DNA of 59,972 nucleotides from a virus (Duplodnaviria; Caudoviricetes), in the IMG/VR virus record IMGVR_UViG_3300043219_000134, positions 1-59,972 of that record. One strand, written 5' to 3'. Under the pieces are notes generated by a model, which worked only from the letters and a program-made list of their open reading frames with translations, was not told the DNA's origin and ran no database searches. This document shows positions 2,690 through 57,151 of this stretch, one piece after another (positions within the stretch are counted from its first letter, which is position 1; each line of letters begins with the position of its first letter). The position numbers and the translations under genes were made by a program.

Positions 2690-2733
2690 TTTTGATTCCT
2701 TTTTAGGGGAGGTTCTCCCCCGTTTGATTTAGA

Positions 2734-3255
2734 TTAGTTTTGACCTTTAAGGTCGGCTATTAAAAAGCATAAGTCTCCATAATTTATTTGTATGTAGTCT
2801 TGAAGGCTAGGGGCTTGAATTGTTGTTATTATGAATAAGTGTCCCCCGTTAGGATACCACCAGCCGTCACTTTTGACCTTTGGTTCATACACATATAAAG
2901 TAACGTCATTATCGTCATCTATTGCTACGTAGGAGTATTTTTCTGCTTGGTCAACGGTTATCTTTTCGATAAGTATATCCTTAATTTGTTGCAGTTCGGT
3001 TTTTGGTGTAACTTGCCCGTATTCATCAAAGGTTAATATCATTGAAAGAGCTATAACTTTTATCTGTGATAGGGTTTTAAAGTCGTGGGTTGTCTCGCCT
3101 AATGCATCGCCATTGATATCGAATACACGGATTGTAATACAATTCGATTCAAGTTTATTCTCTAAGTACATGACCATAACAGTGTAATCTTTGTTAAGTA
3201 CATAACCCTTTCTTGTAGTTCCGTTTAGACCTTCTGTTTCATACATTTTTTTCAT
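2734..3255 (-). CDS. Hypothetical protein
   Basis: 173-aa ORF with AAGGA SD. Confidence 0.75.
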   Translation of the reverse strand: MKKMYETEGLNGTTRKGYVLNKDYTVMVMYLENKLESNCITIRVFDINGDALGETTHDFKTLSQIKVIALSMILTFDEYGQVTPKTELQQIKDILIEKITVDQAEKYSYVAIDDDNDVTLYVYEPKVKSDGWWYPNGGHLFIITTIQAPSLQDYIQINYGDLCFLIADLKGQN

Positions 3256-3329
3256 ATTGTTTCCTTTAGGTGTCTATACACCTATTTTTTGATTCTTGAC
3301 GGGGGAGACTAGTCTCTTGACCCTTGATT

Positions 3330-3375
3330 GCTACATGGTGGAATTGCACCACCATTTAATCCTCTAGGATATAGC
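3330..3375 (-). ncRNA. tRNA-like minihelix (variant T-loop)
   Basis: GCTATA...TGGTGG-TGCAATT-CCACCA-TGTAGC on - strand, intergenic. Confidence 0.55.
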
Positions 3376-3376
3376 C

Positions 3377-3649
3377 TTAATCTTTTCTAAGTTTTATATA
3401 TTGTTTGATGGCTTTTTTTTGTTCTTTTAAAGTCTTATCATGTACCTGTAAATATATTAAGACCGCCTCAGTACTATCAATTAAACCCTTGCCGAATGCA
3501 ATACCATAAATGTATATTGTAGGGTAGTCTTTAAGGTCAAACTTTTTACAACCTCCGATACCAACCATTTCTATTTGTAGACTACTATCAATTAACATTT
3601 CCATAAAAGTATCATACTTTGTCACTAATTTTTTGTCATATATTATCAT
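3377..3649 (-). CDS. Hypothetical protein
   Basis: 90-aa ORF with GAGG SD. Confidence 0.7.
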   Translation of the reverse strand: MIIYDKKLVTKYDTFMEMLIDSSLQIEMVGIGGCKKFDLKDYPTIYIYGIAFGKGLIDSTEAVLIYLQVHDKTLKEQKKAIKQYIKLRKD

Positions 3650-3667
3650 TGTTACCTCTCTTTTTTA

Positions 3668-4177
3668 TTACCCTAATTGATAACTACTTGCAAAGTAGAC
3701 ACTATCACCGCTGTCATTGTATTTTACTAAGTTACTACTGAAATAACTTGTGCCTTCTGCACCGTCCCAAAAACGTGTTTCAGACTCCCTATACCCATCT
3801 AGTTTCATGAAGTTTCCTAAGTAGTAGACTTGACCGGAGACTCTAAAGAATGAGTAGCTAGAGTCTAATTCATCGGGTTCAAGAAAGTCATAATCTTTCT
3901 TTTCTTTGTCGGTTAGGTCGTAGCCTGATATGATTTCTTTAGGCTTGTAATCTGATACTATTACTAAGGCATTGTCGGCAAGTCCAGTTACGAATCTTTT
4001 TAGACTATGCATGTAAATTAGACAATAGGTGTCTGATTCGGCAAGGTCTACGAATGAGCACTTTAAGGCTTTACATTGTCGCTGTATTTTTAATAGGTCT
4101 CTACCCGTGAATTTAAAAGAACTCATTCTTTTTGCTATTAAGTCGGTCATTACTTCTTTTACTTGTTGCTCTAACAT
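3668..4177 (-). CDS. Hypothetical phage protein
   Basis: 169-aa ORF with GGAGG SD. Confidence 0.8.
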   Translation of the reverse strand: MLEQQVKEVMTDLIAKRMSSFKFTGRDLLKIQRQCKALKCSFVDLAESDTYCLIYMHSLKRFVTGLADNALVIVSDYKPKEIISGYDLTDKEKKDYDFLEPDELDSSYSFFRVSGQVYYLGNFMKLDGYRESETRFWDGAEGTSYFSSNLVKYNDSGDSVYFASSYQLG

Positions 4178-4338
4178 TATTTTGTTCCTCCTAGAACGGT
4201 GTATACTTCGGTCTTTCTGTCTGCTTGGTCAGTGAATAGATTCTCGATGAATGAGTCAAACTTGTCGGTCTCTTCGATAACAGGCTCTTTTGTTTCTCTT
4301 TGTTCTTTCCAGAATTGTTTAATTAGTTTTGATTTCAT
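4177..4338 (-). CDS. Small hypothetical protein
   Basis: Start at MKSKL after AAGGGA; stop overlaps next start. Confidence 0.6.
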   Translation of the reverse strand: MKSKLIKQFWKEQRETKEPVIEETDKFDSFIENLFTDQADRKTEVYTVLGGTK

Positions 4339-4390
4339 TTTTGTTCCCTTCGAGCTTGCCACAATGGACATTGATGTTGCACTCTTTCCT

Positions 4391-4433
4391 GTCTGCAATA
4401 GGGAGTCGAACCCTATACATAAACCATGCAGAT
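4391..4433 (-). ncRNA. tRNA-like minihelix
   Basis: TCTGCA...ATAGGG-TTCGACT-CCCTAT-TGCAGA on - strand, intergenic. Confidence 0.7.
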
Positions 4434-4931
4434 TTAGTCAATATTATTGTATTTGGCGGTCTTGTTACTTATTACTACCCTTCGTGTAATTGGTACTATT
4501 TCAACCTCTTCTATTGAAGTTTCGGGAACTATCTCTATTGATTGAATGCATACATAATCAATGTCTGATTTCATGGATTTATACAGGGTTATGTTTTCAC
4601 CACCAAAGTCTAATACATTAAGGTAGCAACGTTCTAATTCAAGGGACATTGTATCAAAGTCTAGTGACTTAATAGTCCGTAGTTTGTGGCTTAATGTGTC
4701 TGTAGTTAATAGTAGTTTTTGTCCTACCTTGTAGCCTTTTACTTCTATGTATCGTCTGGATATTAAGGCAAGTCTAGAGTCGTATAACTCTTCTTGTTTG
4801 TAATTGCCTAAGTCACATAATGCTTCAAGTGATTTCATAGAGCAATAGTTTGCCATGGAATGTAATAGGTCAGTGTCTGTGATAGTAGGGATTGAGTTGA
4901 TTAGTTTCTTAGTAAATCTGTATGTAGTCAT
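4434..4931 (-). CDS. Hypothetical protein
   Basis: 165-aa ORF with AAGGA SD; first gene left of the divergent region. Confidence 0.75.
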   Translation of the reverse strand: MTTYRFTKKLINSIPTITDTDLLHSMANYCSMKSLEALCDLGNYKQEELYDSRLALISRRYIEVKGYKVGQKLLLTTDTLSHKLRTIKSLDFDTMSLELERCYLNVLDFGGENITLYKSMKSDIDYVCIQSIEIVPETSIEEVEIVPITRRVVISNKTAKYNNID

Positions 4932-5540
4932 ATTGTACTTCCTTTTGTTAGCTGGTTAGTTTGTATTTGTTTAGGCTAACTCCTAACAGTACAGGCAGTA
5001 TGGGATTGTGTCTAGTATTATTTTAGGGAATTGGTGAAGTTTATTTTATTTGTGCTGTTTTCTATAGATATAAGGATATTTCTATAGTTTCTATAGGGTC
5101 TGTATTTAGGGGTGTTAGGTATAACTAATATATATATATGTTATTTTAATTATTTAATATGTTATTATAAAGTATATGCAGAAAAGCATATATAGATTGA
5201 AATATAGGTGAGTATTGGGGAAGAGAGGGGTACGAGAGGAGACGAGTCAAAGTAACATATTAAACCGAAATATGGCCAAATATGGCCATTTAGACACCCC
5301 AAATAACTATAGAAAAGGGTAGAAAGACATAGAAAGTTCTATAGACCCAGGGTTTTGACCCCCCAATGGGGGTTTTGGGTTCGGGAGGTAGAGAGACCCG
5401 TAAATCTCAATAATACAAAAAAATATATATATAAAATCAAACCAACATTCCATCCGTCACTGTGCGATTGCAAAAGCAATCCCCCTGTGGTATACTCTCT
5501 ATATAAAGAAAAACTAAAAGAAACTAAAAGGATCCAAAAT

Positions 5541-6062
5541 ATGAACGAAGACCAAAAGACAGCCCAGCGTATGAGACGCCAAACCCTAAAGGACCAAGAA
5601 ACCCGAGATTTCACCCAAGATCCATCCAGCGCCCCGTCCAACTACTTGCCCCCATCGGTAATCAACTCCATATCCTCGGTCAAACAAGCCAAGACTACCT
5701 TCGACAAATTAATCTCGCGAGAACTAATAGACATGATCGCCAATGGAGACACCCAAACTATAAAACTCAAGGCGATGGACATGTACCACAAACTATCCTC
5801 ATCTGCCCAGATGCTAATTAAACACGGCAACAACGTAGCCGCTATCGAAGCGCCAACTGGCGATACCGGAGCGACCATAAACGTAAACTTCTCCTCCCAC
5901 CTACAAAATGACGAGCCAGAGGAAACCCTCAAAATAGCCTCCAGAGACCTAGTCGCGGAAAAGAACGACAAACTATTCGCCGAATCCTTCTCCAAAAAGG
6001 ACTCCTTCTCCCCCGTCAGGAATGACGTCGAGGATGCAGAATTTGAGGTGATAAATGGATAA
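5541..6062 (+). CDS. Putative terminase small subunit
   Basis: Upstream of terL; AAGGA SD before MNEDQ; typical INVNF...EDAEFEVI tail. Confidence 0.55.
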   Translation: MNEDQKTAQRMRRQTLKDQETRDFTQDPSSAPSNYLPPSVINSISSVKQAKTTFDKLISRELIDMIANGDTQTIKLKAMDMYHKLSSSAQMLIKHGNNVAAIEAPTGDTGATINVNFSSHLQNDEPEETLKIASRDLVAEKNDKLFAESFSKKDSFSPVRNDVEDAEFEVING

Positions 6063-6184
6063 GAGAGAAATACTACCAAGAGAAACTATAGAGGCTTTAA
6101 TAAAAGAGAACACAAGATACTTAGAATCAGAGACAAGATTTGTTTTGAGAGAACTTAAAGTCTTAGCTGCTCAAAGGAGCACAG

Positions 6185-8041
6185 ATGACAAATTATAAAT
6201 TTACTAATTTTAACGAGCAAGAGAAACGGCTCTTTATAGCTGGCGGACTTGATCGAGATGATCCACGAACCTGCTGCATGATAGATATGAACGGAGACCC
6301 GATCAGGGTAATAAAGAAACCTCCAATTATACCGATGGAGATCATCCATCATCCGGATGCTCCAGCTTTTAAAGCAGAGAAAGATTCCGGTTTAATTTTC
6401 CAACAACTGATAAAAGAACTTAAGTCAAAACATACTGACTGGTCAAACCCCGAGTTCAAATCGTTGATGCAGCAAGCAGGTAAGGTTAACCTTTGGTTCT
6501 ACCTTAAATATATAGCGAGTCATTCTGGCCCCTATGGAGACGTGACTGATCATCTACATCGTGACCTGTGCAATTTTAGACAGAGTCAGCTCAAGCCCGG
6601 CGCTAGAGGAGCCGTTTTTATTCCCCGTTCTCATTATAAATCAACCGTGTTTACACATGGTGCGAATGGATGGGAACTACTAAGGAACCCCGACCTAAGA
6701 ATTGGACTAGGGTCAAATATTATTGATCGTTCGCAGGAGTTCATGAGAATGACTCAGGCACAATTTGATGATAACGAGATGATTGAGTTTCTTTACCCAG
6801 AGTACTGTCCAGAGAAATCCCTCAAGACGGGGAAGACGGTAGCCAAGCGGTGGAATAGCCGAGAGATGGTTATGCCGAATAGAAGTCGAAATATGCCTGA
6901 ACCCTCAATTAAGCCGATTGCAGTCGGTGGATCAACGGCCGGGAATCACTTTGATTTATTAGCCCTTGATGATATAATAGGAGATAAGCAATTAGATGCA
7001 GACCACATGTCAGGAACAGAAATGCAAAAGATCACCAACTGGTTTAAAAGTAGTTCTAGAACTTTACTTACTGATCCCGCTACTGGTCGGATCACTCTTG
7101 CTGCTACTAGATACGCCATCGACGATACTTATGAAGATCTCATGCTTGATTGCTGTGGTCAATTTGGGAATTGGGACGAAATTGATTATCCGATTAAAAG
7201 GAATGGTGAATGGGACATCTTTTATAAGATGGCGATTGAACGGAATGAAATTGTCTTTCCAGAGGCGATTACTCGGAACATGCTCGATAAGCTAAGGGTT
7301 GATGACTGGTGGACTTATGTGACACAGTATTTAAATAATCCTCACATAGCTGGGGCGTCAGAATGGACAGACTTTGACGTGAAAAAGTTTACTATGGACT
7401 ATGATGACAATTCGGGATATAGGATCTGGCTGAATGGCGAAGAGAAACCGCTCTATGTCGAGGATATGGATTTGCAGATTGGTATTGATCCTGCCGCCTC
7501 GGACCGAAAGGCCCGGGCTACGACTTCAAGGAGTGCAATATCAGTTCTCGCGAGAGACTCGCGTAACAGGATATTTCTTCTAGATGTACAAGCAGGTTAT
7601 TGGGGACCCAGTAAGCTATTTGATAATATGTTCCGTATCCATAAGAAATTCCGAAGGCATAACCCATCGACTCACCTTGAGCAAATGGGTGCATTCAAAC
7701 TACTTGGACCACTCCTTCGAGAGGAACAAGAAAAAAGAAATTACTACCTAAATCTGCGCGCAGTTACTAAGGGCACGGACAAAGACAATACAATACGGGC
7801 AAATATAGAACCGATACTAAATGACGGAAGACTATACGTAATAGAGAATAATTATAACCTACTAATACAAGAGGTTAAAACATTCCCTAATGGAAAGCTA
7901 AAAGACATCCTCGATTCAGTGACACTTGCTTACCAAGCATCACGAACTCCCCCGTCAGAGTTAGAACTAAGTGAAAGATATACTCGAAAGAAAGAAAGCG
8001 CTTGGAGAAGCAAAGGCAAAAACGCACTTACAGGATATTAA
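6185..8041 (+). CDS. terL: Terminase large subunit
   Basis: Walker A PRSHYKST, Walker B LALDD, nuclease motifs IGIDPA and KDILDS. Confidence 0.93.
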   Translation: MTNYKFTNFNEQEKRLFIAGGLDRDDPRTCCMIDMNGDPIRVIKKPPIIPMEIIHHPDAPAFKAEKDSGLIFQQLIKELKSKHTDWSNPEFKSLMQQAGKVNLWFYLKYIASHSGPYGDVTDHLHRDLCNFRQSQLKPGARGAVFIPRSHYKSTVFTHGANGWELLRNPDLRIGLGSNIIDRSQEFMRMTQAQFDDNEMIEFLYPEYCPEKSLKTGKTVAKRWNSREMVMPNRSRNMPEPSIKPIAVGGSTAGNHFDLLALDDIIGDKQLDADHMSGTEMQKITNWFKSSSRTLLTDPATGRITLAATRYAIDDTYEDLMLDCCGQFGNWDEIDYPIKRNGEWDIFYKMAIERNEIVFPEAITRNMLDKLRVDDWWTYVTQYLNNPHIAGASEWTDFDVKKFTMDYDDNSGYRIWLNGEEKPLYVEDMDLQIGIDPAASDRKARATTSRSAISVLARDSRNRIFLLDVQAGYWGPSKLFDNMFRIHKKFRRHNPSTHLEQMGAFKLLGPLLREEQEKRNYYLNLRAVTKGTDKDNTIRANIEPILNDGRLYVIENNYNLLIQEVKTFPNGKLKDILDSVTLAYQASRTPPSELELSERYTRKKESAWRSKGKNALTGY

Positions 8042-8042
8042 A

Positions 8043-8429
8043 ATGGAAGAAAGACCAATAAATTATATGACTTATGAGAGTACACTTGATAATCCAGTGG
8101 CAGCTAATGACTCTATTGAAAGATTTAAAAAGTACCTATATGGTGGTATGGGATTTTTATTTGAGGAAAGTGAGACAAACACTTTTAAAGAGAAAGTATT
8201 AATGGTAGATTTCAACCAGCATATGTTTACAGTTATTAATAAAGATTCTAGAGATCATATTAGAAGAATACCAACTGATATAGTAGGTTACAAGATAGAA
8301 TCAGCTTATTTTAAATATAGAAAAGAAATAAAACAAATACTATTAGTAGAGTCAGAAAAGAAATGGGCAAAGAAAAGAGAAGCTAAATTAAAAGCAAAAG
8401 AAGCAAACCTTAAAGGAGTTACCCAATGA
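8043..8429 (+). CDS. Hypothetical protein
   Basis: ORF from MEERP directly after terL stop; AT-rich. Confidence 0.65.
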   Translation: MEERPINYMTYESTLDNPVAANDSIERFKKYLYGGMGFLFEESETNTFKEKVLMVDFNQHMFTVINKDSRDHIRRIPTDIVGYKIESAYFKYRKEIKQILLVESEKKWAKKREAKLKAKEANLKGVTQ

Positions 8430-8647
8430 AAAAATATCCATTAGGATTAAGACTCAAGCAAATCTTTACTATGAGATTAAAAGTTGAAAAAGCTTGTTTT
8501 GAAATATTAACAAACTATAGATTCGCTAAAAAATATGAACCCTTACCAATTGAAAAAAGATTGAAAAACTTAAAAGAAACACTTATATTAGTACAAGAAT
8601 CTATAAACGAATTAGAACAGGAGACCCATAATGGCAGACGAAGATAA
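8426..8647 (+). CDS. Hypothetical protein
   Basis: 73-aa ORF, AAGGAG SD, ATGA overlap. Confidence 0.65.
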   Translation: MKKYPLGLRLKQIFTMRLKVEKACFEILTNYRFAKKYEPLPIEKRLKNLKETLILVQESINELEQETHNGRRR

Positions 8648-10604
8648 TATCTTTGATATTATAGTAGATGAAGCACCGGAGGACGTTAGGTCGTCTAATC
8701 TGGCGGTTTTTAATGACGAGGAACAGCAGACGGCGTTCCTTGATTATATTATTGAAGAACAGTCATTAGCCGAAGATGAGCGGCAGATAAGAGAGCAGAA
8801 ATGGAAAACTTTTAGACGACAGTCTAAAGCTTTACCTGAAAATGCAACAAAGAACTTTCCTTGGAAGGGAGCGTCAAATGTAAGCCCTCCTTTAATGATG
8901 TCGATTATTCATACGATAACGAGTAAGTTGGTTGCATCATTTGCGGATAAGAAACCACTTTGGAAAGTTGAGCCGAGAGATGAAGCCTTTAAGGATCATG
9001 CCTCAGCCCTAACTAAGTATATGAACTTATTGGCGATTTCGAGAAATCATTTGAATATTACGGATAAGAAACGATCAGTCTTTTACGACCTAGCTCGTCT
9101 CGGAGATCAGGTGATTCATTTACCGTGGATCTTTAAACAACAGAAATTCCGAGCAGATACAGTAGAGGGTACAGAAGAGGAAGTAGTAAAAGTACTACAA
9201 GATAGTCCCGGTTTTATTCCATTAAGGATTGAAGACTTTTTTATTAGGGGACACTTTACTAATATACAAGATGCACCTTGGGTGAGTAGACGAAATAGAT
9301 TCTATTATCACGAGCTTACACAGAAAGCGGCACAGGGTATATTTCAGAATGTTGACCTATTAACTTTAGAGAGTACAGCACCGACGGACGACAATAAGAT
9401 AGCGGATCAGGCTAACTTAGGTATTCAAATTACAGACAGCAACGTTAAAGAAAGTAGCGTCTTTGATATCTACGAAGCCTATTGCTTCTGGGACATCGAT
9501 GGTGACGGGGTAATGGAAGATATAATCGTAACGTATGAACCAACTACACGGACGATCCTAAGAACTGAGTATAATAAATTAGGTTTAAGACCGTTCGAGA
9601 ATATATCATACATAAAAATGCCACACTCCTTTTATTCATTAGGCGTAGGTGATATTACATCGGGTATGCAACAAGAAGCAGAAACACTTCATAACATGGA
9701 TATAGATGCGAGACATCTAGGAATGATGCAAATGAAAGTAGCTCGAAGGGGGAGCGGATTAGATGAAAATTCGGAGTACTATCCGGGAAAAACTATTATC
9801 GTTGATGACCTTAATGACTTCTCGACGTTTAAATTTGACGACATCTCGGAAGGAGCTTTTAGAGCAGAACAGAGAGCTTCATCTTACGCGAGAGAAGCTT
9901 CTGGCGCCACTGCACAGATGGCAGGTCAGGATGAGTCAGCGGGAAATAGATTGGGAGCGTCTGGAACAATGTTCCTCGCACAACAAGCAAATACTATCCT
10001 TGACTCAGTCAGAGATAACATTTCTGAAGCGTTTAGTAGAATTGGGTTCTTAGTTATTACACAGTTAGTAGCCAACTCAGAACGAGTAGACTATAGTATG
10101 GTTTCTGAATATGAGGCAGGTCTTCTTAAGGAGATCTTTGCACTTGATATTCATACACTACCGACTACGTTTAAGTTGGATGTACGAACTACAGAGATGC
10201 AAGAGACAGAAGATGCTAAACGAGAAGGCTTAATGTCAGTATGGCAAATCTATAGTCAATTTGGTCAGGAGATGATTCAGGTTGCAGGTATGTTAGGCCA
10301 AGGCGGAATGCCAGAAGGTATGACTGATGCGGTTGCATCTTACTATGTCGGAAAAGTTAAGATGATGAAAGAGATGCTAGAGCATTTTCAGATTGATGAC
10401 GTTAATGACTTTGTACCTTATATTAGGAACTTGGAGATGATGTTAGAGAATCTTGATAGACAAAAAGACGATCAATTAGGAGTTGACCCAGATGGAAACC
10501 CAACAGGATCTAATTCTTTTGGCGGACAACCAGCAGGACAAGTGGGACAAGCCGCAGGACAAACAGCTAGCCCAGTTTCTACAGGTAACGCAGGGGCAGT
10601 TTAA
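8631..10604 (+). CDS. Portal protein
   Basis: 657 aa after terL; PWKGASNV, WDIDGDG, FYSLGV motifs seen in P22-like podoviral portals. Confidence 0.85.
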   Translation: MADEDNIFDIIVDEAPEDVRSSNLAVFNDEEQQTAFLDYIIEEQSLAEDERQIREQKWKTFRRQSKALPENATKNFPWKGASNVSPPLMMSIIHTITSKLVASFADKKPLWKVEPRDEAFKDHASALTKYMNLLAISRNHLNITDKKRSVFYDLARLGDQVIHLPWIFKQQKFRADTVEGTEEEVVKVLQDSPGFIPLRIEDFFIRGHFTNIQDAPWVSRRNRFYYHELTQKAAQGIFQNVDLLTLESTAPTDDNKIADQANLGIQITDSNVKESSVFDIYEAYCFWDIDGDGVMEDIIVTYEPTTRTILRTEYNKLGLRPFENISYIKMPHSFYSLGVGDITSGMQQEAETLHNMDIDARHLGMMQMKVARRGSGLDENSEYYPGKTIIVDDLNDFSTFKFDDISEGAFRAEQRASSYAREASGATAQMAGQDESAGNRLGASGTMFLAQQANTILDSVRDNISEAFSRIGFLVITQLVANSERVDYSMVSEYEAGLLKEIFALDIHTLPTTFKLDVRTTEMQETEDAKREGLMSVWQIYSQFGQEMIQVAGMLGQGGMPEGMTDAVASYYVGKVKMMKEMLEHFQIDDVNDFVPYIRNLEMMLENLDRQKDDQLGVDPDGNPTGSNSFGGQPAGQVGQAAGQTASPVSTGNAGAV

Positions 10605-10800
10605 TGACGTTAGGGAGTACTTGTTAGAGTCTCCCCAAACGGTTAAAGTTCTAAAGAGAATTACATCAATATATGATGAGAAACAATTAAATAAACTTAA
10701 AACAAGTAAAGAAAGTATTGATATCTATCGCTCTCAAGGAGCGTTGGATATCCTTAAAAAGATAAATGATATGATAGAAAATATTAAAGGAAATTACTAA
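10483..10800 (+). CDS. Small head-module protein
   Basis: Between portal and scaffold; IYRSQG motif; start uncertain. Confidence 0.55.
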   Translation: MTQMETQQDLILLADNQQDKWDKPQDKQLAQFLQVTQGQFNDVREYLLESPQTVKVLKRITSIYDEKQLNKLKTSKESIDIYRSQGALDILKKINDMIENIKGNY

Positions 10801-11678
10801 TGGAAACACTAACAACAGAAGAAATTATTGTTGATCCAATAATCGACGGGGGAAATCTAGCACCGGATACTCATATTCAGCCAGATCTATTTCAGATTGA
10901 GGACGAGGAAAATACACCGTCGACTGACGACTTGACTGCTCAGATTGCTGCACAAGCTGCCGAACTGGAGAAACTTAAACTAGGATCAGACCTAAGCGCA
11001 GGTATGACTCAAGGATTTGATACTTTGGCTAGACAACTACAGAGTCAGAATGCGCCAAATTACGATCACCTTCCGGGACTTCCGGCAGTTATTAATACAC
11101 CCCAGACGCAGTTTAACTTGCCAGATCGGGAATCTTTTGAGCGAGAGTTCTTAACTAATCCTTATGACTCACTGCAAAAGTTTTTGGCTCCGGTAGTAGG
11201 AAATCAGCAACAAGTTGTGAATACTCAAATGGCCGAGATGAATAAGATGATCTCAAAGAATAATACTTATATGAACGATACTAACAAGGATATACTGAAT
11301 AAGTATGGAGATGAAGTTGGGGTTTATGCAAGTCGACTACAGGGTAATGATCCTTGGGGAGAAGCAGTTAAGCAAGTTAGATCTAATCACTTTGCGGATA
11401 TAATGGCGGATCAGACTAAATCTATTGAAGAAAAGATGTACGAAAAAGCTAAGGCAGACTTACTAGCAGAAAGTACAGCAGCAGATTCAACTCTAGCCTC
11501 CCCCGTCGGAAGTACTAATTTAGGACAGGCAACTATACCTACTGTTAAGAAGGTAAGTATAACTAAGACACAGATGGATAAGGTGAAAAAATTAACCGCG
11601 TTGAAGTTTGGTCCGGATTCAGGTTCTGAAACAGAGCTTATGATGTATAACTACTTGAAAGAAAGAAACGAGATTTAG
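10800..11678 (+). CDS. Putative scaffolding protein
   Basis: Acidic N-terminus, helical, between portal and capsid. Confidence 0.6.
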   Translation: METLTTEEIIVDPIIDGGNLAPDTHIQPDLFQIEDEENTPSTDDLTAQIAAQAAELEKLKLGSDLSAGMTQGFDTLARQLQSQNAPNYDHLPGLPAVINTPQTQFNLPDRESFEREFLTNPYDSLQKFLAPVVGNQQQVVNTQMAEMNKMISKNNTYMNDTNKDILNKYGDEVGVYASRLQGNDPWGEAVKQVRSNHFADIMADQTKSIEEKMYEKAKADLLAESTAADSTLASPVGSTNLGQATIPTVKKVSITKTQMDKVKKLTALKFGPDSGSETELMMYNYLKERNEI

Positions 11679-11688
11679 GAGAAATAAG

Positions 11689-11967
11689 ATGAAACAATAT
11701 ATTGGAATTAAAAAGATAAATGCAAAACCAATGAATAGACTAGACTATAATGTTTTTAGAGGTTGGGAATTACCTGCTGATGAAGATGGAACTGATGAAG
11801 GCTATTTAGTAGAATATATAAATGGTGGTAAAGCAAATACAGATTCTTATGGTGGTTATGTATCATGGAGTCCTAAAGATGTTTTTGAGAACGCTTATTA
11901 TGGTTTGAGTTTCATAAACTCATTTAATGTAATTGAAAAAATAACAGAACTATTCGGAGAGAAATAA
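11689..11967 (+). CDS. Conserved small phage protein (YIGxK...SWSPKDVFE family)
   Basis: Recognisable widespread phage motif; AGGAG SD. Confidence 0.75.
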   Translation: MKQYIGIKKINAKPMNRLDYNVFRGWELPADEDGTDEGYLVEYINGGKANTDSYGGYVSWSPKDVFENAYYGLSFINSFNVIEKITELFGEK

Positions 11968-12587
11968 TGGCAGATAAGAAAATAATTATAGGTAGAAAAT
12001 ACATTGACCTTGACACAAGCTATGAAAATGTGTTAGAATGGGCTGAGGAAGGTCATACGATGGTCTTTCTTAGTAAACCCGAGCTTTTTATGGAATTAAC
12101 CCCTGAACAGGTTAAGGCGCTTCCTCAGAGAGTGAAGACGTCCTATCGATTAGCATTGGCTGATTTTAAGACACAGACTAAGTCTTTTACTGACCCTGAA
12201 CTAGAGTTCTTGAGCGCTTCTGTAGAATACGGAAGTCCTACGGAACAACTTAATGTGGATCAGACTGGGGTGAAAGGTAAAAAGATTAAGTGGGTTAGAC
12301 CTGAACAGATCAAAGATTATGGTCGAAGAGGTTGGAGCGTAGTTAAGACCGATATGGATTCTCAGAGAGGATTACGTGACGGTAACTATCATATGGTAGG
12401 AAAGAAAGAGTTGATACTGTTGGAGATTCCTATTAAGAGATACAACGAAAATGCAGCGAAGCGTAATGAACGTGGAGCACAAATGTTAGAAGCAAATGCG
12501 GAAGAAATGAAACGATCAGCTAGAGAAATGAATGCGATTGGATCATTTGAAACTTCGGAAGAAGATATCAACATTCCGTTAGATTAA
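11967..12587 (+). CDS. Head-module hypothetical protein
   Basis: 206 aa; KWVR..GW.VV..LILLEIP pattern; position before capsid genes. Confidence 0.7.
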   Translation: MADKKIIIGRKYIDLDTSYENVLEWAEEGHTMVFLSKPELFMELTPEQVKALPQRVKTSYRLALADFKTQTKSFTDPELEFLSASVEYGSPTEQLNVDQTGVKGKKIKWVRPEQIKDYGRRGWSVVKTDMDSQRGLRDGNYHMVGKKELILLEIPIKRYNENAAKRNERGAQMLEANAEEMKRSAREMNAIGSFETSEEDINIPLD

Positions 12588-12603
12588 TTAATATAAATAA
12601 AGC

Positions 12604-12627
12604 AGCTCTCCTCGGAGGGCTATTCTT
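12604..12627 (+). terminator. Intergenic hairpin / weak terminator
   Basis: AGCTCTC-CTCG-GAGGGCT followed by ATTCTT. Confidence 0.4.
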
Positions 12628-12648
12628 GTTAATACTAAGGAGAATTAA

Positions 12649-13125: not shown

Positions 13126-13144
13126 GATAAGGAGAAATTAGAAT

Positions 13145-14104: not shown

Positions 14105-14105
14105 A

Positions 14106-14498
14106 ATGAACTTTGATCCAACGTTAATTTACGACGTGGATAATAATACCGAAGGGAATACTATCTATATGCCAGAGTACCAAGCAGTGTCTATCGCTGC
14201 TCCCGGTGCTACAGAACCGGCTGAGGCAGTATTCCCTTTTTTTGATCCTGAAACTGAAACGCCACAACTTGCCTTCGGCTGGAGATACCCAGTTGGTACA
14301 AAAGGTGGCTACTCTGGACAAGATTGGCGAGAATGTGCCTGTTGCAACAGAGATTACGGGTCTGATAGCTATCAGATCATTAATGGATTAGCGTATTGTA
14401 TACCACATGGCTGTTTACAGCAGAAACTGGCACAACTAGAAGAAGGTGGACCTCTATTCGAGGATTCAACTATTCCAGACGATGCCATAAATTTATAA
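14106..14498 (+). CDS. Hypothetical protein with Cys cluster
   Basis: CACC...CIPHGC; follows capsid gene. Confidence 0.65.
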   Translation: MNFDPTLIYDVDNNTEGNTIYMPEYQAVSIAAPGATEPAEAVFPFFDPETETPQLAFGWRYPVGTKGGYSGQDWRECACCNRDYGSDSYQIINGLAYCIPHGCLQQKLAQLEEGGPLFEDSTIPDDAINL

Positions 14499-16261: not shown

Positions 16262-16264
16262 GAT

Positions 16265-46847: not shown

Positions 46848-47234
46848 CTATTCTCCTTCTTCAACCTCTGTTGAATGCTTGACGGGGGAGTGCCAGTCTA
46901 AAAAGCCCTCAATTGCATACCCGAGCATACTAAGTATAATTATCCCGTTAAAGACCATTATAATTGTATTTCCTATATACTCATATACAGGGTGGGTATT
47001 ATGTAACACCAAAAGTATTACAGCTGAGACTAATCCGAATAGACATTGTCTCCGTCCTATTTTTATGTCCGTCTCTTCTGGAAGAGTAAGACCATCTGTT
47101 TCTGTTGTTTCTTCCGACACTTCGGAATACAACGCTTCGTTCATTGATTTATTTGTTTGAGCTATTTCATGTTTGGAGATATGTGTCACTAATGGTATCA
47201 TCAGTATTAGTAAACTCCAAGCTATAAATATCAT
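46848..47234 (-). CDS. Membrane protein (about 3 TM)
   Basis: Hydrophobic segments; AGGAG SD. Confidence 0.7.
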   Translation of the reverse strand: MIFIAWSLLILMIPLVTHISKHEIAQTNKSMNEALYSEVSEETTETDGLTLPEETDIKIGRRQCLFGLVSAVILLVLHNTHPVYEYIGNTIIMVFNGIIILSMLGYAIEGFLDWHSPVKHSTEVEEGE

Positions 47235-47236: not shown

Positions 47237-47698
47237 CTAGCTCCTTTTTGGCATAGGCTTGATTACACAGCTTACGTCGAACGCTTCGAGGTCACGTTTA
47301 ATTTCGTTCATCTCGTCTAATGTTCCCTGTGCAACTCGTGTATAGCCTTGTTTAAAAATCAGATTAGCTTCCCTCTCTGAGAAGTTCATCACGTATTCAA
47401 AGTACGCTGTCGGGTCTGGTTCTCTACAATCTTGAACCGGACACACATGTACTATCAATCTATGTGCATCTTCATTAACTAATTCTCCCCCGTCAGACTT
47501 TATGAATCTAGGTTTTAAATTGTACTTACCTTTCTCCCAAGTCTTAGTTATCCGGTTGGGTTTAGCTTTTAATTTCGCTAATTTAGTCATTTTATTAAGA
47601 TATCTAGAGACTTCTCTCGGAGTACCTTTTATAGAGGTAATATCTAAATTAAGGAGGCTCGCTCTCTTCTCTAGTTTTGCTTTTGTTCTTTTGTTCAT
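47237..47698 (-). CDS. Hypothetical basic protein
   Basis: 153-aa ORF. Confidence 0.7.
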   Translation of the reverse strand: MNKRTKAKLEKRASLLNLDITSIKGTPREVSRYLNKMTKLAKLKAKPNRITKTWEKGKYNLKPRFIKSDGGELVNEDAHRLIVHVCPVQDCREPDPTAYFEYVMNFSEREANLIFKQGYTRVAQGTLDEMNEIKRDLEAFDVSCVIKPMPKRS

Positions 47699-50954: not shown

Positions 50955-52100
50955 TTAGTCCTTTAGTAGCACTTCGCTACCTAGTAAGTATGCATCCTTA
51001 GTGATTCTGAACACCTCAATTTCAGTTACATACTTGTTTATCTTCTGTATCATAGTGCTGTCATTCAGCGTATATGAACCCCAAATCCACTTCTCTTGTT
51101 TTCGCTTGTACCGGAATCTAAACTCCTCGAAAACATAGACTTTATCCGATATACTGCCGTATTGTCTTACTCTATACGTTTCAGTCGGCATCACCTCAAC
51201 GAACCCGTATCCTAAAATGTGGGGATAATCCATATCCGAAAGATAAGCCGTCGCTTTAACCTTTCTTAGACTCTCCATTAGATTAAAGGAACTATCATTT
51301 CTGATAAAAAGCTCCCTAGAGTCTTTGACCTCTTCTCGTAAGAGATCGATCTTTAGAAGACGTTCATCTATTAAAAAGATTAGTTCTTCTATCTTATTGA
51401 ATGCATATCTTAACCCGATCGTTATATCTTTTCTCTTAAAAGGGCTTCCAGTCTCACTAAGATTTTTGCGCATTCCTTTTAGCTCACTAAGAGCTACAGC
51501 CGTATTCTCTCCGATACTTAAAGTATTCACTATAGTTCCGACGATACCTATTTGATAGTCGAAGTCATAGTTTTTAAATCCTGTATTCAAGGCATCATAG
51601 TAAACTCTTAAAGTAAAACTAATATTAGATAGGCTCATACTCATTAGCATGTGTTCACTTAACCTAAAAATTGTTTGCTTCAAATAGTTTGCTTCATCAC
51701 TCTTGACGGGGGAGAATAAGCTTGTTAAATTATATAATAACTTCAACTCCGATACCATTTCTAAAAAGAACTGGGGAGTCATAGGCGAAATATGTTTAAT
51801 TTGGGAGTAAAATCTATCCTCGAAATACTTAACGCCCATATTAAATGAGAGTTTATTTATTGTGCCCTTATCATACAAGTGAATTGCTTCAATTATATGG
51901 TCTTGAACTATTATGTCGGTCTGTTTCCAATCATCCTTGTAGAAGGAGGGTAAAACGATATCGTTATTGAAACAGCCAGTAAGAACCAATAAGAATAAGG
52001 ATATAAAAAGTACGCCCAAGCTTGTTAACGAAGTCTTTAGTAGGTATTTACTTCTTGTCTTTTTGTTCAGGAGTGGATTTGTCTTTTTTGTTTTTATCAT
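50955..52100 (-). CDS. Putative lipoprotein
   Basis: Basic N-terminus, hydrophobic core, lipobox LTGC. Confidence 0.65.
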   Translation of the reverse strand: MIKTKKTNPLLNKKTRSKYLLKTSLTSLGVLFISLFLLVLTGCFNNDIVLPSFYKDDWKQTDIIVQDHIIEAIHLYDKGTINKLSFNMGVKYFEDRFYSQIKHISPMTPQFFLEMVSELKLLYNLTSLFSPVKSDEANYLKQTIFRLSEHMLMSMSLSNISFTLRVYYDALNTGFKNYDFDYQIGIVGTIVNTLSIGENTAVALSELKGMRKNLSETGSPFKRKDITIGLRYAFNKIEELIFLIDERLLKIDLLREEVKDSRELFIRNDSSFNLMESLRKVKATAYLSDMDYPHILGYGFVEVMPTETYRVRQYGSISDKVYVFEEFRFRYKRKQEKWIWGSYTLNDSTMIQKINKYVTEIEVFRITKDAYLLGSEVLLKD

Positions 52101-53121
52101 TTGATCTCCCCCTAGTATTATTCTTCGGCGGTGTACTTACGGACGGTTTAGCTTTAGGCTTTACCTTTGACTTATTAACGTCAGTCTCCCCCGTCGAGTT
52201 GGGAGACTTTTTGGTCTTTTTAGGCGCCTTAGCCGTCATTATATATTTTAGAATCTTCTTTAAGACACCACCAGCCAGAGCTTTATTGGTATCCTGTATT
52301 GAAGTTTCTTCTATAATGTCGCCCGGTTTTTGAGTAAGCTCCTTAGCCTTTAGAGCTTCAAGTTTAAGAGTCCGTCTAATGTCCTTTTTTCTCTTGATAT
52401 CATCGATAAAAAGTGAAAAGGTCATAGGCTCTTTAGGATTGATCGGTGCTGGCTCAGTTACCGGAGTATTATTTAAAGGTTTTTTCTTGTCCTCAACTAT
52501 TGGAGTAGTCTCTGGTTTTTTGTTAGTCTCTTTAGTAGAAGGTTTTTTAGGTTCTTCTTTTTTAACTGACGTTAAAGGTATGGTTTTTGTAGTTTTCGGC
52601 TTTCGGTTAAGTACTGCTTTTTGTATATTATAGAGTATAAAACAGATTATTAAACCGAAGGTAAGTAATTTACCGAATAGTGTAATTTTATCTATAGTAG
52701 ACTCTAATTTAGCGTACTTAATAACGTCAGCTTCACTAGCGACCATTGACTCGTAGAGTTGCATCTCGTATCCGGCTATTACAGATTCAAAGTGTTTAAT
52801 AGTTGCTTTGTCCTGTTTGGTTACTCGAGCGTGCTCTTTAGTTATATTTGTGTAGGCTGTTCTCTCAGTATCGATAAGATACTTTAATTCTTCATTCATT
52901 TCTTTAAAGAAGACAGCTCTTTTTTCTGATTGTTCCGCGTCTTTTTCGGAGTACCCTGAAATCTTTGCATAATGGTTTTTCATACTAATTTCATGGGTAA
53001 GTTGTTCCTTCAAGATATTATTCTCTATTGACGTAATATCCATCATAGAGAATACTTGCGCATGACTAGCCCAAGTGATACTTAGAGCTAATAAAATAAT
53101 GTACATAAATTTCTTCATCAT
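52048..53121 (-). CDS. Exported/membrane protein
   Basis: Signal peptide (SHA-Q), coiled coil, TM, Lys/Pro-rich tail. Confidence 0.7.
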   Translation of the reverse strand: MMKKFMYIILLALSITWASHAQVFSMMDITSIENNILKEQLTHEISMKNHYAKISGYSEKDAEQSEKRAVFFKEMNEELKYLIDTERTAYTNITKEHARVTKQDKATIKHFESVIAGYEMQLYESMVASEADVIKYAKLESTIDKITLFGKLLTFGLIICFILYNIQKAVLNRKPKTTKTIPLTSVKKEEPKKPSTKETNKKPETTPIVEDKKKPLNNTPVTEPAPINPKEPMTFSLFIDDIKRKKDIRRTLKLEALKAKELTQKPGDIIEETSIQDTNKALAGGVLKKILKYIMTAKAPKKTKKSPNSTGETDVNKSKVKPKAKPSVSTPPKNNTRGRSNDKNKKDKSTPEQKDKK

Positions 53122-53883: not shown

Positions 53884-54306
53884 TTAAATCTTTTTTACGA
53901 GTGTAATTAAAAAAGTTGAGCTACCAAACCATTGTTCCTCAAAATTCCTTGCTTCTTTTTCTGTAGCAAAGGTTTTTATTGTTGAAGGGACTGCTTCAAC
54001 AAGATCTTTTGCTTCTTTAAGACCAAGACCAGTTGCTCCACGAATAACTTTAAGTGTAGGAATTATCATTCCATCAGTGAACTTTACAAATCTCACAGCC
54101 CACTCTTCTCTAAAAGTTGGGTTGTCTACTGCGGGTAAGTCTTCCTCTTTAATTACTTTACGAGTTAACGTAATGTCGTACTCTGAACTAAGTAGTTCTG
54201 CGTATTTTAAGGTGCTTTTTAAAGATACACAAAATGTAGCTATAGAGTCCAGTTCAGTTCTGTCTCTAAGTTTTACTAATTCATCTTTTATTTCGTTTGT
54301 TGTCAT
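53884..54306 (-). CDS. Protein with ribosomal bL12 (L7/L12) CTD-like domain
   Basis: IPTLKVIRGATGLGLKEAKDLVEAVPSTIK...EKEA. Confidence 0.8.
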   Translation of the reverse strand: MTTNEIKDELVKLRDRTELDSIATFCVSLKSTLKYAELLSSEYDITLTRKVIKEEDLPAVDNPTFREEWAVRFVKFTDGMIIPTLKVIRGATGLGLKEAKDLVEAVPSTIKTFATEKEARNFEEQWFGSSTFLITLVKKI

Positions 54307-55146: not shown

Positions 55147-55467
55147 CTAAGATATACTGTGCCAAGACCTAATAAAGTTTAAGTCTCGCCTGTTTATCGA
55201 TACACGTTGATGGGGTTCAACCCCACTAGGCACGATTTCGCTACCCTCCGTAAAGCCTAAGCCCTTACTTAATAGGTACAGATGAATATAATATGATCTT
55301 ATCGATTTTATTATATATTCCTTACTCGTCGTCGGACTCCTTGCCCGATAGAGAATCACGGTGCAAACCTCGGTTTGTGTTCCATGACGTATTACCTCTT
55401 CTTCCAGGGATGTGTTGCAAGACACAATCAGAAAAGATATTAAAAGAGTTATTAGTAGTTTTAGCAT
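55147..55467 (-). CDS. Putative lipoprotein
   Basis: MLKLLITLLISFLIVSC; AAGGAGG SD. Confidence 0.65.
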   Translation of the reverse strand: MLKLLITLLISFLIVSCNTSLEEEVIRHGTQTEVCTVILYRARSPTTSKEYIIKSIRSYYIHLYLLSKGLGFTEGSEIVPSGVEPHQRVSINRRDLNFIRSWHSIS

Positions 55468-55483
55468 AACTACCTCCTTTATG

Positions 55484-55525
55484 GAGAAAATGGGAATCGA
55501 ACCCAAACTTATGTACCAACTTCTC
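55484..55525 (-). ncRNA. tRNA-like minihelix
   Basis: GAGAAG...TGGG-TTCGATT-CCCA-TTTTCTC. Confidence 0.65.
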
Positions 55526-55715
55526 TAAATGCAAACTTAAGCAATTCTATAGATACTACGTAACCTTCATAACCTTCTGCGCTTATATATACAGTAGTAG
55601 TTTCTTCAATGCTTATTATTTTGTCTATACTCATTTTAGTCCCTTTAGGAACATCTTCTCGTCTTGCTCTAGACGAGTCTGGTTCTAATACCATGTCATA
55701 TTTTGCTTCAAACAT
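55509..55715 (-). CDS. Hypothetical protein
   Basis: 68-aa ORF with AAGGAG SD. Confidence 0.7.
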   Translation of the reverse strand: MFEAKYDMVLEPDSSRARREDVPKGTKMSIDKIISIEETTTVYISAEGYEGYVVSIELLKFAFREVGT

Positions 55716-55731
55716 TATTTACTCCTTTATT

Positions 55732-55774
55732 AGTCAAGGGGGAGTCGAACCCCCACTAGATCACCAGATTAACT
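55732..55774 (-). ncRNA. tRNA-like minihelix
   Basis: AGTTAA...GGGGG-TTCGACT-CCCCC-TTGACT. Confidence 0.7.
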
Positions 55775-56094
55775 TAAGTATAGAACTCAATACCTTCTGG
55801 AAGGTCTAAGCCCATTGCTTTACCAGTTGCAATGATAACTTTGAACAACTCGTTCAAATCATCCGTTGCAAACTCTTCGGTTAGCTCCGGTGTAAGAAGT
55901 GCCTTCGGTGCGAATCTAAAAGCAAGGTTTCTCACTTCTTTTTCGTTCTGAAACTTCACCTCGATAGGTGCATTGTCCCCTAACTGAACTGTAACAATTG
56001 CACTGCAAGCGTTGTTACTTAAAACTTTCTTTGCAGGGATTGATGAATTACCACCACCAATTGGCTCTCTTGTATTTAATACTCTAATTTCCAT
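55774..56094 (-). CDS. Hypothetical protein
   Basis: 106-aa ORF with AGGAG SD. Confidence 0.75.
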   Translation of the reverse strand: MEIRVLNTREPIGGGNSSIPAKKVLSNNACSAIVTVQLGDNAPIEVKFQNEKEVRNLAFRFAPKALLTPELTEEFATDDLNELFKVIIATGKAMGLDLPEGIEFYT

Positions 56095-56102
56095 TTTGTC
56101 TC

Positions 56103-56600
56103 CTATGACGGGTTATTTAATATTCTTGAAGGGTTAAATCCCTTTAAGTGCTGTACTGCTACTGGGATACCATCGGGTCTAGTAATGGCATGCCAGATTT
56201 TTCTAAACAAGATGTAATCTTCTTCCGAGAGCATCCTATTTGTTGTTAATTCATGTAACCTTTTAAGGTACAGTCCTCGACGGATCATATTTTCTTTTAA
56301 CGGGCATGAACCATGCTCCTGATATCTCTTATCGTATGTAACTAGTTTATCTAGTACATACTCGTTGCCTTTTTCCCTGTCTTGCCGTAGTAGACCAATT
56401 TCAGTTATGGCATGACCAGCACTACTGTATATACCAAAGAGCCAATCTATTGACCAGTAGTTTAAAAAGCCTGTCTTATAGATTTTAAGCTCCTCTGCAT
56501 TAGAGAGCCTTTTCTCGTTGGTTACATTTATACGGACTTTCCAATCCTCAGAAGGGGCGCAAGTATATCCGTAAGTAAATCTATTTTTACCGGGTTGCAT
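56103..56600 (-). CDS. Hypothetical protein
   Basis: 165-aa ORF with AGGAG SD. Confidence 0.75.
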   Translation of the reverse strand: MQPGKNRFTYGYTCAPSEDWKVRINVTNEKRLSNAEELKIYKTGFLNYWSIDWLFGIYSSAGHAITEIGLLRQDREKGNEYVLDKLVTYDKRYQEHGSCPLKENMIRRGLYLKRLHELTTNRMLSEEDYILFRKIWHAITRPDGIPVAVQHLKGFNPSRILNNPS

Positions 56601-56602
56601 AT

Positions 56603-57151
56603 TTACTCCTTTCTCATTCGGGCAATCTCGATGTCGATTACGGAAGCTAGTTCCGTTTCGGAATTAGTAAGTATCGTAAAGGACTTACTACGGGATCGGT
56701 CTTCGTCCTGATCGTTATGGAAGGTGTAAAAGTTACCCTCTGGATAGATCACTAAGACCGGACATTTCCAACGGGGGAGATCCATTGCATCGACTATGTG
56801 CATTTTCTCTTTAAAACCAGACATTTCTAGGTGGGTCTGTAATAGGCGCACCATTGCATTATGAAAGTGCAGATTGATAATGTCTGCTCCGGCATAATAA
56901 ATATTGATGGTCTTTTTTTCCGAGATATTAAGTTCTTTTACTACTTGGACTAATTCTTCTTCGGTAGCATTCTCGACACGCTCTTTAAGACGGAACTTCT
57001 CTAAGTCATCTTCATCTTTTTGTTTTTTGTCAAAGCTTTTTTTAAGCATCGACATTACCCAACCTATAATAAATATTACTAACCCCCAGAATAATGCAAC
57101 GTAGAAATGACTTCCTAGTGACCATTCATGGACTTTTAATAAAATTTCCAT
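56603..57151 (-). CDS. Membrane-anchored protein, possible degenerate thioredoxin-like ferredoxin domain
   Basis: N-terminal TM; CPVLVIYPEGNFY. Confidence 0.55.
   Translation of the reverse strand: MEILLKVHEWSLGSHFYVALFWGLVIFIIGWVMSMLKKSFDKKQKDEDDLEKFRLKERVENATEEELVQVVKELNISEKKTINIYYAGADIINLHFHNAMVRLLQTHLEMSGFKEKMHIVDAMDLPRWKCPVLVIYPEGNFYTFHNDQDEDRSRSKSFTILTNSETELASVIDIEIARMRKE

Follow-up and report, generated by a model that had tools for sequence, protein, structure and literature searches.

The stretch of DNA analysed here is the IMG/VR virus record IMGVR_UViG_3300043219_000134 (Duplodnaviria; Caudoviricetes), taken over its full length of 59,972 bp and called the window below. CheckV rates the record as complete, and no end repeats were found in it. 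Its genes form two convergent arms: a structural arm on the plus strand (about 5.3-31.1 kb), which encodes the terminase large subunit, an SU10-like portal, the major capsid protein and tail proteins, and an early or replication arm on the minus strand, which runs from about 59.7 to 31.4 kb and onward through 4.9-0.1 kb. Gene positions follow our own, crude set of 85 open reading frames (ORFs), from which ORF 40860-41225 was dropped. The subject of this study is a word of nine nucleotides, CTCCCCCGT, which occurs in 32 exact copies, 19 on the plus and 13 on the minus strand, spanning positions 2715 to 56779. This DNA word, more fully T-CTCCCCCGT-C-AGA-N-TT, acts in cis, is under selection, is strand-specific and is private to a phage lineage.

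In 100 dinucleotide shuffles of the window the word is present 0.10 times on average and twice at most, against the 32 copies observed. The reversed, non-complemented control word is absent from the window, and a scan of all k-mers from k=6 to k=12 leaves CTCCCCCGT as the sole stand-out. A sequence-only reading of the window had listed at least 32 copies (19 plus, 13 minus) against about 0.1 expected, and had counted the next base as C in 24 cases, T in 5 and A in 3; the recount returns the same copies at the same coordinates and the same tally. The GC content had then been eyeballed at 36%. Measured per 5-kb bin it lies between 0.35 and 0.40, and the expectation of 0.1 copy stands.

Recognition of the word is sharp, with all nine positions read, because copies with one mismatch are few (12; the shuffles expect 4.68 matches with zero or one mismatch). 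The fuller consensus reads T (69%)-CTCCCCCGT-C (75%)-A/T-G (59%)-A (50%)-N-T (56%)-T (72%), and the GT at the end of the word is invariant. Literature on the exact word yielded, among the matches listed, only primers or unrelated constructs. A further claim, that the flanks often pair as a short stem, did not survive: perfect 3-bp pairing of positions -3 to -1 with +2 to +4 occurs at none of the 32 sites. With a mean folding energy just slightly below that of the controls (-3.74 versus -2.75 kcal/mol; 1.7% of the controls reach the site value), the hairpin idea was abandoned. The same applies to an AT-rich unwinding element, as the AT content of the flanks equals the genome level.

Most copies are embedded in coding sequence: 26 of the 32 lie wholly within genes, 14 in sense and 12 in antisense, and six are intergenic. 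The sequence-only reading had put about 25 copies inside genes, in all six frames. The number is close to ours, while the frames come down to five (three sense and two of the three antisense ones), since the sixth, RGR at 41149, hinges on the dropped ORF 40860-41225. When codons were shuffled synonymously (300 shuffles), the mean total was 6.70 copies and the maximum 12. Six of these copies are intergenic and were not altered by the shuffling, which leaves an expectation of about 0.7 within genes, against 26 seen. The enrichment persists under the codon-preserving shuffle that had been proposed as a check, and the shuffles uphold the earlier claim that selection acts on the DNA rather than on the peptide.

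The series of copies begins with two intergenic ones, at 2715-2723 (+, 3' of a GGGGAG-gtt-CTCCCC hairpin) and 3299-3307 (-). Along the structural arm, plus-strand copies stand in sense in gene 5355-6062 (6008-6016), the terminase large subunit gene 6185-8041 (7947-7955), gene 22396-24450 (24129-24137) and gene 26439-31139 (28029-28037), and two more lie in genes 10800-11678 (11498-11506) and 16776-19031 (16907-16915). Minus-strand copies are antisense to gene 12649-13125 (12683-12691), to gene 22396-24450 (23252-23260) and, twice, to gene 26439-31139 (26919-26927 and 29415-29423); another falls in the small ORF 20314-20538 (20505-20513). An intergenic plus-strand copy at 21686-21694 belongs to the 3' arm of a CGGGGGA/TCCCCCG hairpin, and a second (31285-31293, +) is located where the two gene arms converge.

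Along the replication arm, copies on the plus strand are antisense to the GroES-like gene 32131-32475 (32142-32150) and to genes 33385-33693 (33646-33654), 36235-36504 (36267-36275), 45569-46030 (45724-45732), 47237-47698 (47485-47493) and 52048-53121 (52186-52194). Two others are antisense to the DNA polymerase gene PolA (38160-38168 and 38838-38846); the latter is retained with altered flanks in the contig of a relative from run X2. Sense copies on the minus strand occur in the MazG-like gene 32667-33167 (32683-32691), in PolA (37935-37943) and in genes 36470-36703 (36671-36679), 40544-41026 (40824-40832), 46848-47234 (46882-46890), 50955-52100 (51706-51714) and 56603-57151 (56771-56779). 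The copy at 36671 is followed after 81 bp by one on the other strand (36752-36760, +), which is intergenic and directly downstream of PolA. The copy at 41149-41157 (+) is intergenic according to our gene calls, and would lie within ORF 40860-41225 if that ORF is real. Promoters of a T7-like RNA polymerase were considered and rejected: no single-subunit RNA polymerase was found, the orientation of the copies is unrelated to transcription, and two loci that do encode such a polymerase (L110 and L111, see below) have a different word.

The word recurs in phages with related polymerases. Homologues of PolA range from 94% down to about 30% identity. The genome G002 (locus L103; PolA 56% identical, GC 33%, 44,865 bp, 94% complete) contains 18 exact copies of CTCCCCCGT, 6 plus and 12 minus, and no copy of the control word. 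Phage vir526 (BK063670.1; PolA 33% identical, GC 51%) carries 19 copies of ACCCCCCCGTCAGA, written A-CCCCCCCGTCAG-A, and locus L104 (PolA 36% identical) ten copies of CTCTGCCCCCC or CT-CTGCCCCCC-T in 16.7 kb. Three copies of TCCCCCATC are present in the 2.7 kb of L116 (PolA 73% identical), four of TTGCCCCCC in the 6.6 kb of L128, and two of CTGCCCCCCTCT in L119. Possible private words of other kinds, and weaker ones, appear in further loci of the PolA family, i.e. ACTCCCC seven times in L122, GAGCGACT six times in L130 and CTTATTGG seven times in L117. A search of relatives, as the sequence-only reading had proposed, therefore returns the same word in G002 and variants in vir526, L104, L116 and L128. 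Related phages keep the same word or a private variant of it built round five to seven C, and the word is a property of the phage lineage, not a product of chance or codon usage.

The individual places of the copies are not conserved. Between the window and G002, positions are common for two of 13 alignable window sites (11498 and 16907) and for two of six G002 sites, and some copies cost amino-acid changes. Since positions turn over while count and spacing are kept, selection acts on number and spacing, not on places. This bears on the idea that the phage passively carries a signal of its host's genome, for instance an uptake sequence or another host repeat. Uptake sequences are indeed 9-10-mers, present on either strand with a density of about one per 1-2 kb. 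Nevertheless, we judge such an origin highly improbable: the same or related words exist in relatives of GC 33% to 51% from different habitats, the count is kept while positions change, and the drive by which uptake sequences build up has no route into a virulent-looking phage. A 14-mer scan of 185,579 species genomes argues weakly in the same direction, with at least 120 stretches that are single matches in scattered taxa; among the 120 stretches listed, 115 have one core copy, five have two, and none has three or more. The corresponding scan of IMG/VR gave 90 stretches, each a single match.

Several IMG/VR loci encountered in these searches have words of their own. L074/G001, a 56.6-kb fragment rated 12% complete, contains CCCCCGT 30 times on one strand and three times on the other (reversed control 13 and 0); it is apparently a fragment of a much larger, unrelated phage. 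The T7-like loci L110 and L111, with a single-subunit RNA polymerase, a Toprim primase-helicase and PolA, carry AGTCTCACA about ten times in 20 kb as well as TCACAGTGTGA-type palindromes, which are probably phage promoters or operators. L255 (13.4 kb, GC 33%) stems from an unrelated phage and has GC-rich words, TGTGCCGGAT in four to five copies and TTCCTTGCGC and CGAAGAACTGCG in four each. As for vir526 (L012), its host label is Methanomicrobiales, yet it has terminase, portal, capsid and the whole replication module in common with the bacterial-looking window phage; the label may deserve a check.

A new structural finding concerns the layout of the word. Successive copies in the window nearly alternate in orientation (26 runs versus 16.4 expected, P=0.00011), and minus copies are never adjacent; over four genomes, the combined P for alternation is 5e-6. 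Gaps between copies on the same strand are even, with coefficients of variation of 0.54 for the plus row (P=0.0036) and 0.50 for the minus row (P=0.0112) of the window, and of 0.21 (P 0.0044) and 0.38 (P 0.0010) for those of G002. The P values are 0.03 (minus) and 0.46 (plus) in vir526 and 0.05 and 0.10 in L104, and the evenness combined over the genomes was reached in none of 20,000 simulations. By contrast, the pooled copies of both strands are not regularly spaced (P 0.11-0.16), and neighbours on opposite strands come as close as 81 bp. When the row of one strand was rotated against the other, the mean was 21.3 runs, and the observed 26 were reached in 1.5% of the rotations. Most of the near-alternation hence arises because each strand carries its own evenly spaced row. 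It follows that the reader of the word distinguishes strands or directions, and that coverage along each strand matters.

The same layout is found in the crAss-like phage crAss002 (MN917146), which contains 29 copies of tt-CCCCC-(G/A)-TA-(A/G)-AGGAG, 13 plus and 16 minus, running through genes, alternating, and in even rows (P 0.002 and 0.0001). With the genomes treated as circles and combined over the window, G002, vir526 and crAss002, the largest gaps are too small and the smallest gaps too large; for the window alone, the largest-gap test is passed by the minus row only. Two details of the rows deserve mention. The longest stretch without a plus copy, from 52186 across the record ends to 2715 (10.5 kb in circular form), takes in the ORF-poor region at about 57.5-58.9 kb and might hold true genome ends or an origin. 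Furthermore, five of the twelve one-mismatch copies, all on the minus strand (6827, 9746, 10846, 15292 and 18889), are situated within the two longest gaps of the minus row (3299-12683 and 12683-20505); weaker copies may fill gaps in this row.

Candidate readers were sought by a protein scan of about 55 ORFs against Pfam and/or PHROGs, in which small ORFs below about 100 aa and most structural genes were left out. Within this set, no primase (neither Toprim/DnaG-type nor of the AEP family), nickase, HNH protein, methyltransferase or integrase was found. PolA (36766-39531, -) consists of UDG-like, exonuclease and polymerase parts, with a Cys4 ribbon between the latter two; C462, C490 and C493 of this ribbon are invariant in 23 homologues, and C459 is nearly so. 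According to the available text of one study, UDG-like domains without catalytic residues mark N4-like PolAs and are placed on the incoming template strand (PMC13697223). The DUF3987-type helicase (34284-35738, -; 484 aa) lies 1 kb from PolA. It had been named as a candidate primase, but its matches to primase-helicase families are confined to the helicase half, and it is consequently taken to be without a primase domain. Its structure model (pLDDT 51) is too poor to use, so that a likeness to D5 helicases is conjectural; a winged-helix-like part is confined to residues 425-482 (pLDDT 70-78).

The absence of a nickase from this set bears on a second reading of the word, programmed single-strand interruptions. 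A phage nickase would cut the word-bearing strand at each copy, here on both strands, while the DNA is being replicated or once it is mature, as in T5, phiKMV-like and tf/LUZ24-like phages. Nick words are the only documented class of dispersed, gene-embedded and highly over-represented phage 9-mers, and the window word is equally sharp and drifts among relatives in a like manner. Still, the documented words are described in the available accounts as one-stranded and uneven, whereas here both strands are occupied and each row is even. Taken together with the result that no HNH or other nickase was found in the ORFs scanned (that of tf is likewise unknown), this makes nicking rather unlikely in our view.

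The start of a further gene of the module (33694-34284, -) overlaps the stop of the helicase gene. Its product is a protein of 196 aa that is kept in the window, G002, vir526 and L104, and its model (pLDDT 77) consists of two helix-turn-helix (HTH) units together with a C-terminal beta domain. The model has a weak likeness to bipartite DNA-binding domains of transposases (Foldseek E 0.03-0.2), with which language-model neighbours agree at the level of a lead. Searches of the helicase and HTH protein sequences against solved structures gave nothing below E 0.1, and a scan of IMG/VR with an HTH profile returned G002 again and one unrelated locus, with nothing further. Judging from the model, an asymmetric word of about 14-20 bp could be recognised by one such protein as a monomer, through its two HTH units, and a two-HTH protein is present in each of the four genomes that have a C-run word and are sampled in this region. 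The copies might accordingly be its binding sites for ends other than DNA synthesis, e.g. condensation or organisation of the genome, a stoperator-like block of transcription, or packaging; dozens of asymmetric repressor sites are known per genome of cluster A mycobacteriophages. We nonetheless consider these functions improbable. An organiser that binds duplex DNA would need no separate even rows, and the pooled sites are uneven; stoperators have one orientation to transcription and are mostly intergenic, unlike the window copies with 14 in sense, 12 in antisense and six of 32 between genes. Moreover, the HTH gene is translationally coupled to a replicative helicase.

The remaining genes of the module encode a conserved protein of 195 aa without family match (42974-43561, -), a Sak4-like ATPase for annealing single-stranded DNA (43877-44644, -) and a PD-(D/E)XK-type exonuclease (44638-45585, -). 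Exonuclease, Sak4, PolA, DUF3987 helicase and the 196-aa protein are common to the window, G002, vir526 and L104; the 195-aa protein is shared as well, except that it was not detected in L104. Two genes of relatives are interrupted by mobile elements: the Sak4-like ATPase of L117 (5308-6834) by an intein with an HNH endonuclease, and the ribonucleotide reductase of L104 (10575-13320) by a GIY-YIG homing endonuclease gene.

Because exonuclease and Sak4 annealase occur in the window phage and in every relative examined, a Chi-like role of the word has to be weighed. As an orientation-dependent control of a translocating nuclease or recombination machine, the word would serve as a mark of 'self' and halt degradation that sets out from any break or end, read either by the phage exonuclease and Sak4 or by a host enzyme of the RecBCD/AddAB type. 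A signal read from one direction would also select an even row for each orientation, the complement ACGGGGGAG is G-rich like known Chi, and crAss002 likewise has a PD-(D/E)XK exonuclease and a recombinase. On the other hand, 9-14 specified positions are far above known Chi words, the word differs between the close relatives L116 and window, and crAss002 carries a Gam-like nuclease inhibitor beside its word. The matches listed for the species genomes, none with three or more core copies, do not favour a host enzyme either. A Chi-like function thus strikes us as having a small chance of being correct.

Our preferred reading, which we put forward as possible rather than probable, is that the copies are strand-specific start or loading signals for phage DNA synthesis. 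Two forms can be envisaged. In the first, a primer 5'-AC-GGGGG would be laid opposite a ...CCCCC-GT template, with 5'-CTCCCCCGTCAGA-3' as the candidate site on single-stranded DNA; recognition would extend to the following base (mostly C) and to the 3' flank, neither of which would be copied, as at T7 primase sites. In the second, the word would be the site for one-directional loading of the phage helicase. The reader would in either case be the phage replication module, i.e. PolA with its Cys4 ribbon, the primase-less DUF3987 helicase and the translationally coupled tandem-HTH protein; the A-family polymerase-based primase CCPol-MP of SCCmec would be a precedent for polymerase-based priming. 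We propose that forks can run either way, so that each strand would need its own regular row, and that a near-perfect alternation of orientation would result. Priming, or any other process that reads one strand, would select for even spacing per strand. In favour of this reading we also count the selection at the DNA level, the presence of the word or its variants in related phages, the turnover of its positions, the indifference of orientation to transcription, the GT(C) ending, the result that no primase family was found in the ORFs scanned, with a helicase that is short of the primase half, the CCPol-MP precedent and the model of the HTH protein.

Priming sites had already been suggested in the sequence-only reading. 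Selection at the DNA level, a layout of the T7 type and the evenness per strand speak for that suggestion, but a number of observations weigh against it and against start signals in general. No primase gene was identified in the ORFs scanned, and it is solely their position and conservation that make the Cys4 ribbon and the HTH protein candidate readers. The module of exonuclease, Sak4/AAA_24, PolA and DUF3987 helicase is also present in L117 and L107, again with no primase found in the ORFs scanned. However, L117 shows no enrichment of C-runs (6 runs of at least five C versus about 5.4 estimated by hand), where CTTATTGG may be a different word, and L107 has no comparable over-represented word. 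Conversely, in crAss002 a word of almost the same form goes together with a DnaG primase, and by tblastn no replication protein is common to the two phages, which indicates that this class of word is not tied to the replisome of the window and lowers the odds of a reader specific to it. The rows themselves are not uniform: as a circle, the plus row of the window has a 10.5-kb gap (P 0.47), and the uneven plus row of vir526 (P 0.46) has seven copies clustered at 34.7-42.8 kb, in the capsid-to-terminase region. Finally, evenness among copies of the same orientation could partly reflect selection against close direct repeats instead of a function. The maximum-gap test is the sole evidence against that account, and it is weak in the window itself.

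A more far-reaching version of the start-signal reading seems to us quite doubtful, and is given here for its consequences. It envisages a phage family without a conventional primase, in which a replisome of zinc-ribbon PolA, DUF3987 helicase and coupled tandem-HTH protein would start every new strand only at a private word of 9-14 nt, the priming map would be laid down in the genome, which would have to maintain an even row of the word on each strand, and replication would be addressed by sequence to 'self' DNA only; crAss-like phages would have reached this state independently, with almost the same C5-R-T word. If the word is a start or loading signal at all, a whole phage family would address its replication machinery by sequence, and the start points of DNA fragments would be readable from the genome, which to our knowledge is without a described example in any replicon. 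Independent of what the word does, this small (60 kb) system, with no primase in the ORFs scanned, is suited to finding its reader. Such words are lineage markers and constrain coding sequence, and their copies are candidate sites of nicks, which would influence long reads taken from native phage DNA.

Hints about the host are few. A near-identity search of GenBank phages with 8 kb of the window found no close relative; window DNA is present in marine-sediment metagenomes, in contigs of two public runs. No tRNA was found in a scan of the window, and a scan of species genomes with a PolA profile found no relative and thus gave no host lead from binned contigs. The Shine-Dalgarno core is located upstream of 43 of the 58 longer genes. 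Bacteroides, the host of crAss002, does not use Shine-Dalgarno sequences, and a Bacteroidota host as for crAss-like phages is therefore unlikely. The early arm also encodes two proteins with a C-terminal domain of ribosomal protein L7/L12 (41222-42193, -, E 2.5e-10; 53884-54306, -, E 9.1e-12); phages do not usually carry this domain, and its presence hints that translation factors are interfered with. Besides, the window contains genes for a GroES-like co-chaperonin (32131-32475, -) and a MazG-like pyrophosphatase (32667-33167, -), and groS is present in vir526 too.

Among known systems, the nick words of tf/LUZ24-like, T5 and phiKMV-like phages come close in form: in the accounts available, they are sharp words of about 9 bp that lie in genes, are hundreds-fold over-represented and vary slightly among relatives. 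Phage tf has 14 copies of TACTRTGMC, all of them nicked and 11 of 14 in the left half, and its relatives have a variant word (PMC3517423). WACTRTGAC is enriched in 60 related phages, and is described for the Rembedalsseter group as 'not evenly spread' (PMC11780129). These words occur in 13-14 copies per about 45 kb, and both available texts treat their function as still unknown (PMC3517423; PMC11780129). They differ from the window word in being clustered on one strand, as opposed to 19 plus and 13 minus copies in the window and 6 plus and 12 minus in G002, each row even. Their positions are similar among tf relatives, while 11 of the 13 window positions that can be aligned with G002 are not the same there.

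The primase sites of T7 gene 4 provide a close parallel for a start signal. The site 5'-(G/T)2GTC-3' with a 10-nt 3' flank is given in the available text with about 26 strong sites per genome (PMC12839067). It has in common with the window word a templated part, GT, an uncopied 'cryptic' C (present in 24 of 32 window copies) and a 3' flank that adds affinity; both sets of sites occupy both strands at about one per 1.5-2 kb, and a zinc-binding element is implicated in reading (PMC12839067). Yet the T7 core, as described there, is 5 nt long and common by chance, whereas the window word has 9 invariant and 14-17 biased positions, and its sites must therefore be kept by selection. The templated run is G/T in T7, in contrast to C5 in the window, which would give a G-rich primer, and a Toprim/DnaG-like primase such as that of T7 was not found among the window ORFs scanned.

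For priming by a polymerase, the available text on CCPol-MP of SCCmec describes an A-family polymerase that primes de novo with a small partner, mostly with a purine opposite template C (PMC7581432), next to a D5-like helicase (Cch2) that binds iterons (PMC7581432). The 'TV-Pol' idea attached to this system would fit the window in so far as an A-family polymerase lies near a helicase that may be of the D5/primase-C-terminal type and a canonical primase was not found in the ORFs scanned. As described, CCPol has neither exonuclease domains nor zinc, while PolA of the window, with its UDG-like, exonuclease and Cys4-ribbon parts, is a complete replicative polymerase; the CCPol site is at one origin, compared with 32 dispersed copies in the window. 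No homologue of the small, beta-rich partner MP is identified in the window, and the C-terminal beta domain of the HTH protein is not taken as a sign of relation to MP. The primase-polymerase of phage NrS-1, with the site 5'-TTTGGTTA-3', is a precedent for an 8-nt phage primase word, later given as 5'-GTG-3', 3-4 nt, in the available text (PMC8718748). The NrS-1 enzyme belongs to the AEP family and has a helix-bundle domain; no such enzyme was found in the window ORFs scanned, and no even spacing is reported in that text.

The literature searched on over-represented phage motifs and primase recognition contained no word with a both-strand layout that is even per strand. Dispersed phage words are a kind already known, and this layout is a new variant. 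Oriented short words at high genome-wide density, which the window word resembles, also include Chi and uptake words, which are dense, oriented, 5-10 nt long and belong to the host genome. The stoperators of cluster A mycobacteriophages are likewise asymmetric and present in dozens of copies with one HTH reader, but they are mostly intergenic and oriented with transcription, while 26 of the 32 window copies are genic and ignore it.

A very near match is the word of crAss002, for which no published description of an evenly spaced C-run word in crAss-like phages was found in the literature searched. It has a CCCCC-R-T core, which is that of the window and, in its A form, of L116, followed by a purine-rich flank and set at the same spacing; the R position is G or A in crAss002 and strictly G in the window. 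The phages themselves belong to unrelated groups. The genome of crAss002 has 93 kb and encodes a giant RNA polymerase, a DnaG-family primase, HNH genes and a Gam-like protein, and comparison of the 85 window ORFs with crAss002 (tblastn) gave two short matches, neither in the replication module, which provides no ground for placing the window phage in the Crassvirales. Unrelated readers may have converged on a C-run followed by R-T, which would suit the start of a strand with a stable, G-rich primer, or an unrecognised common factor may read the word in both phages. In either case, a word core common to the window phage and to the very abundant crAss-like gut phages makes the phenomenon a general one.

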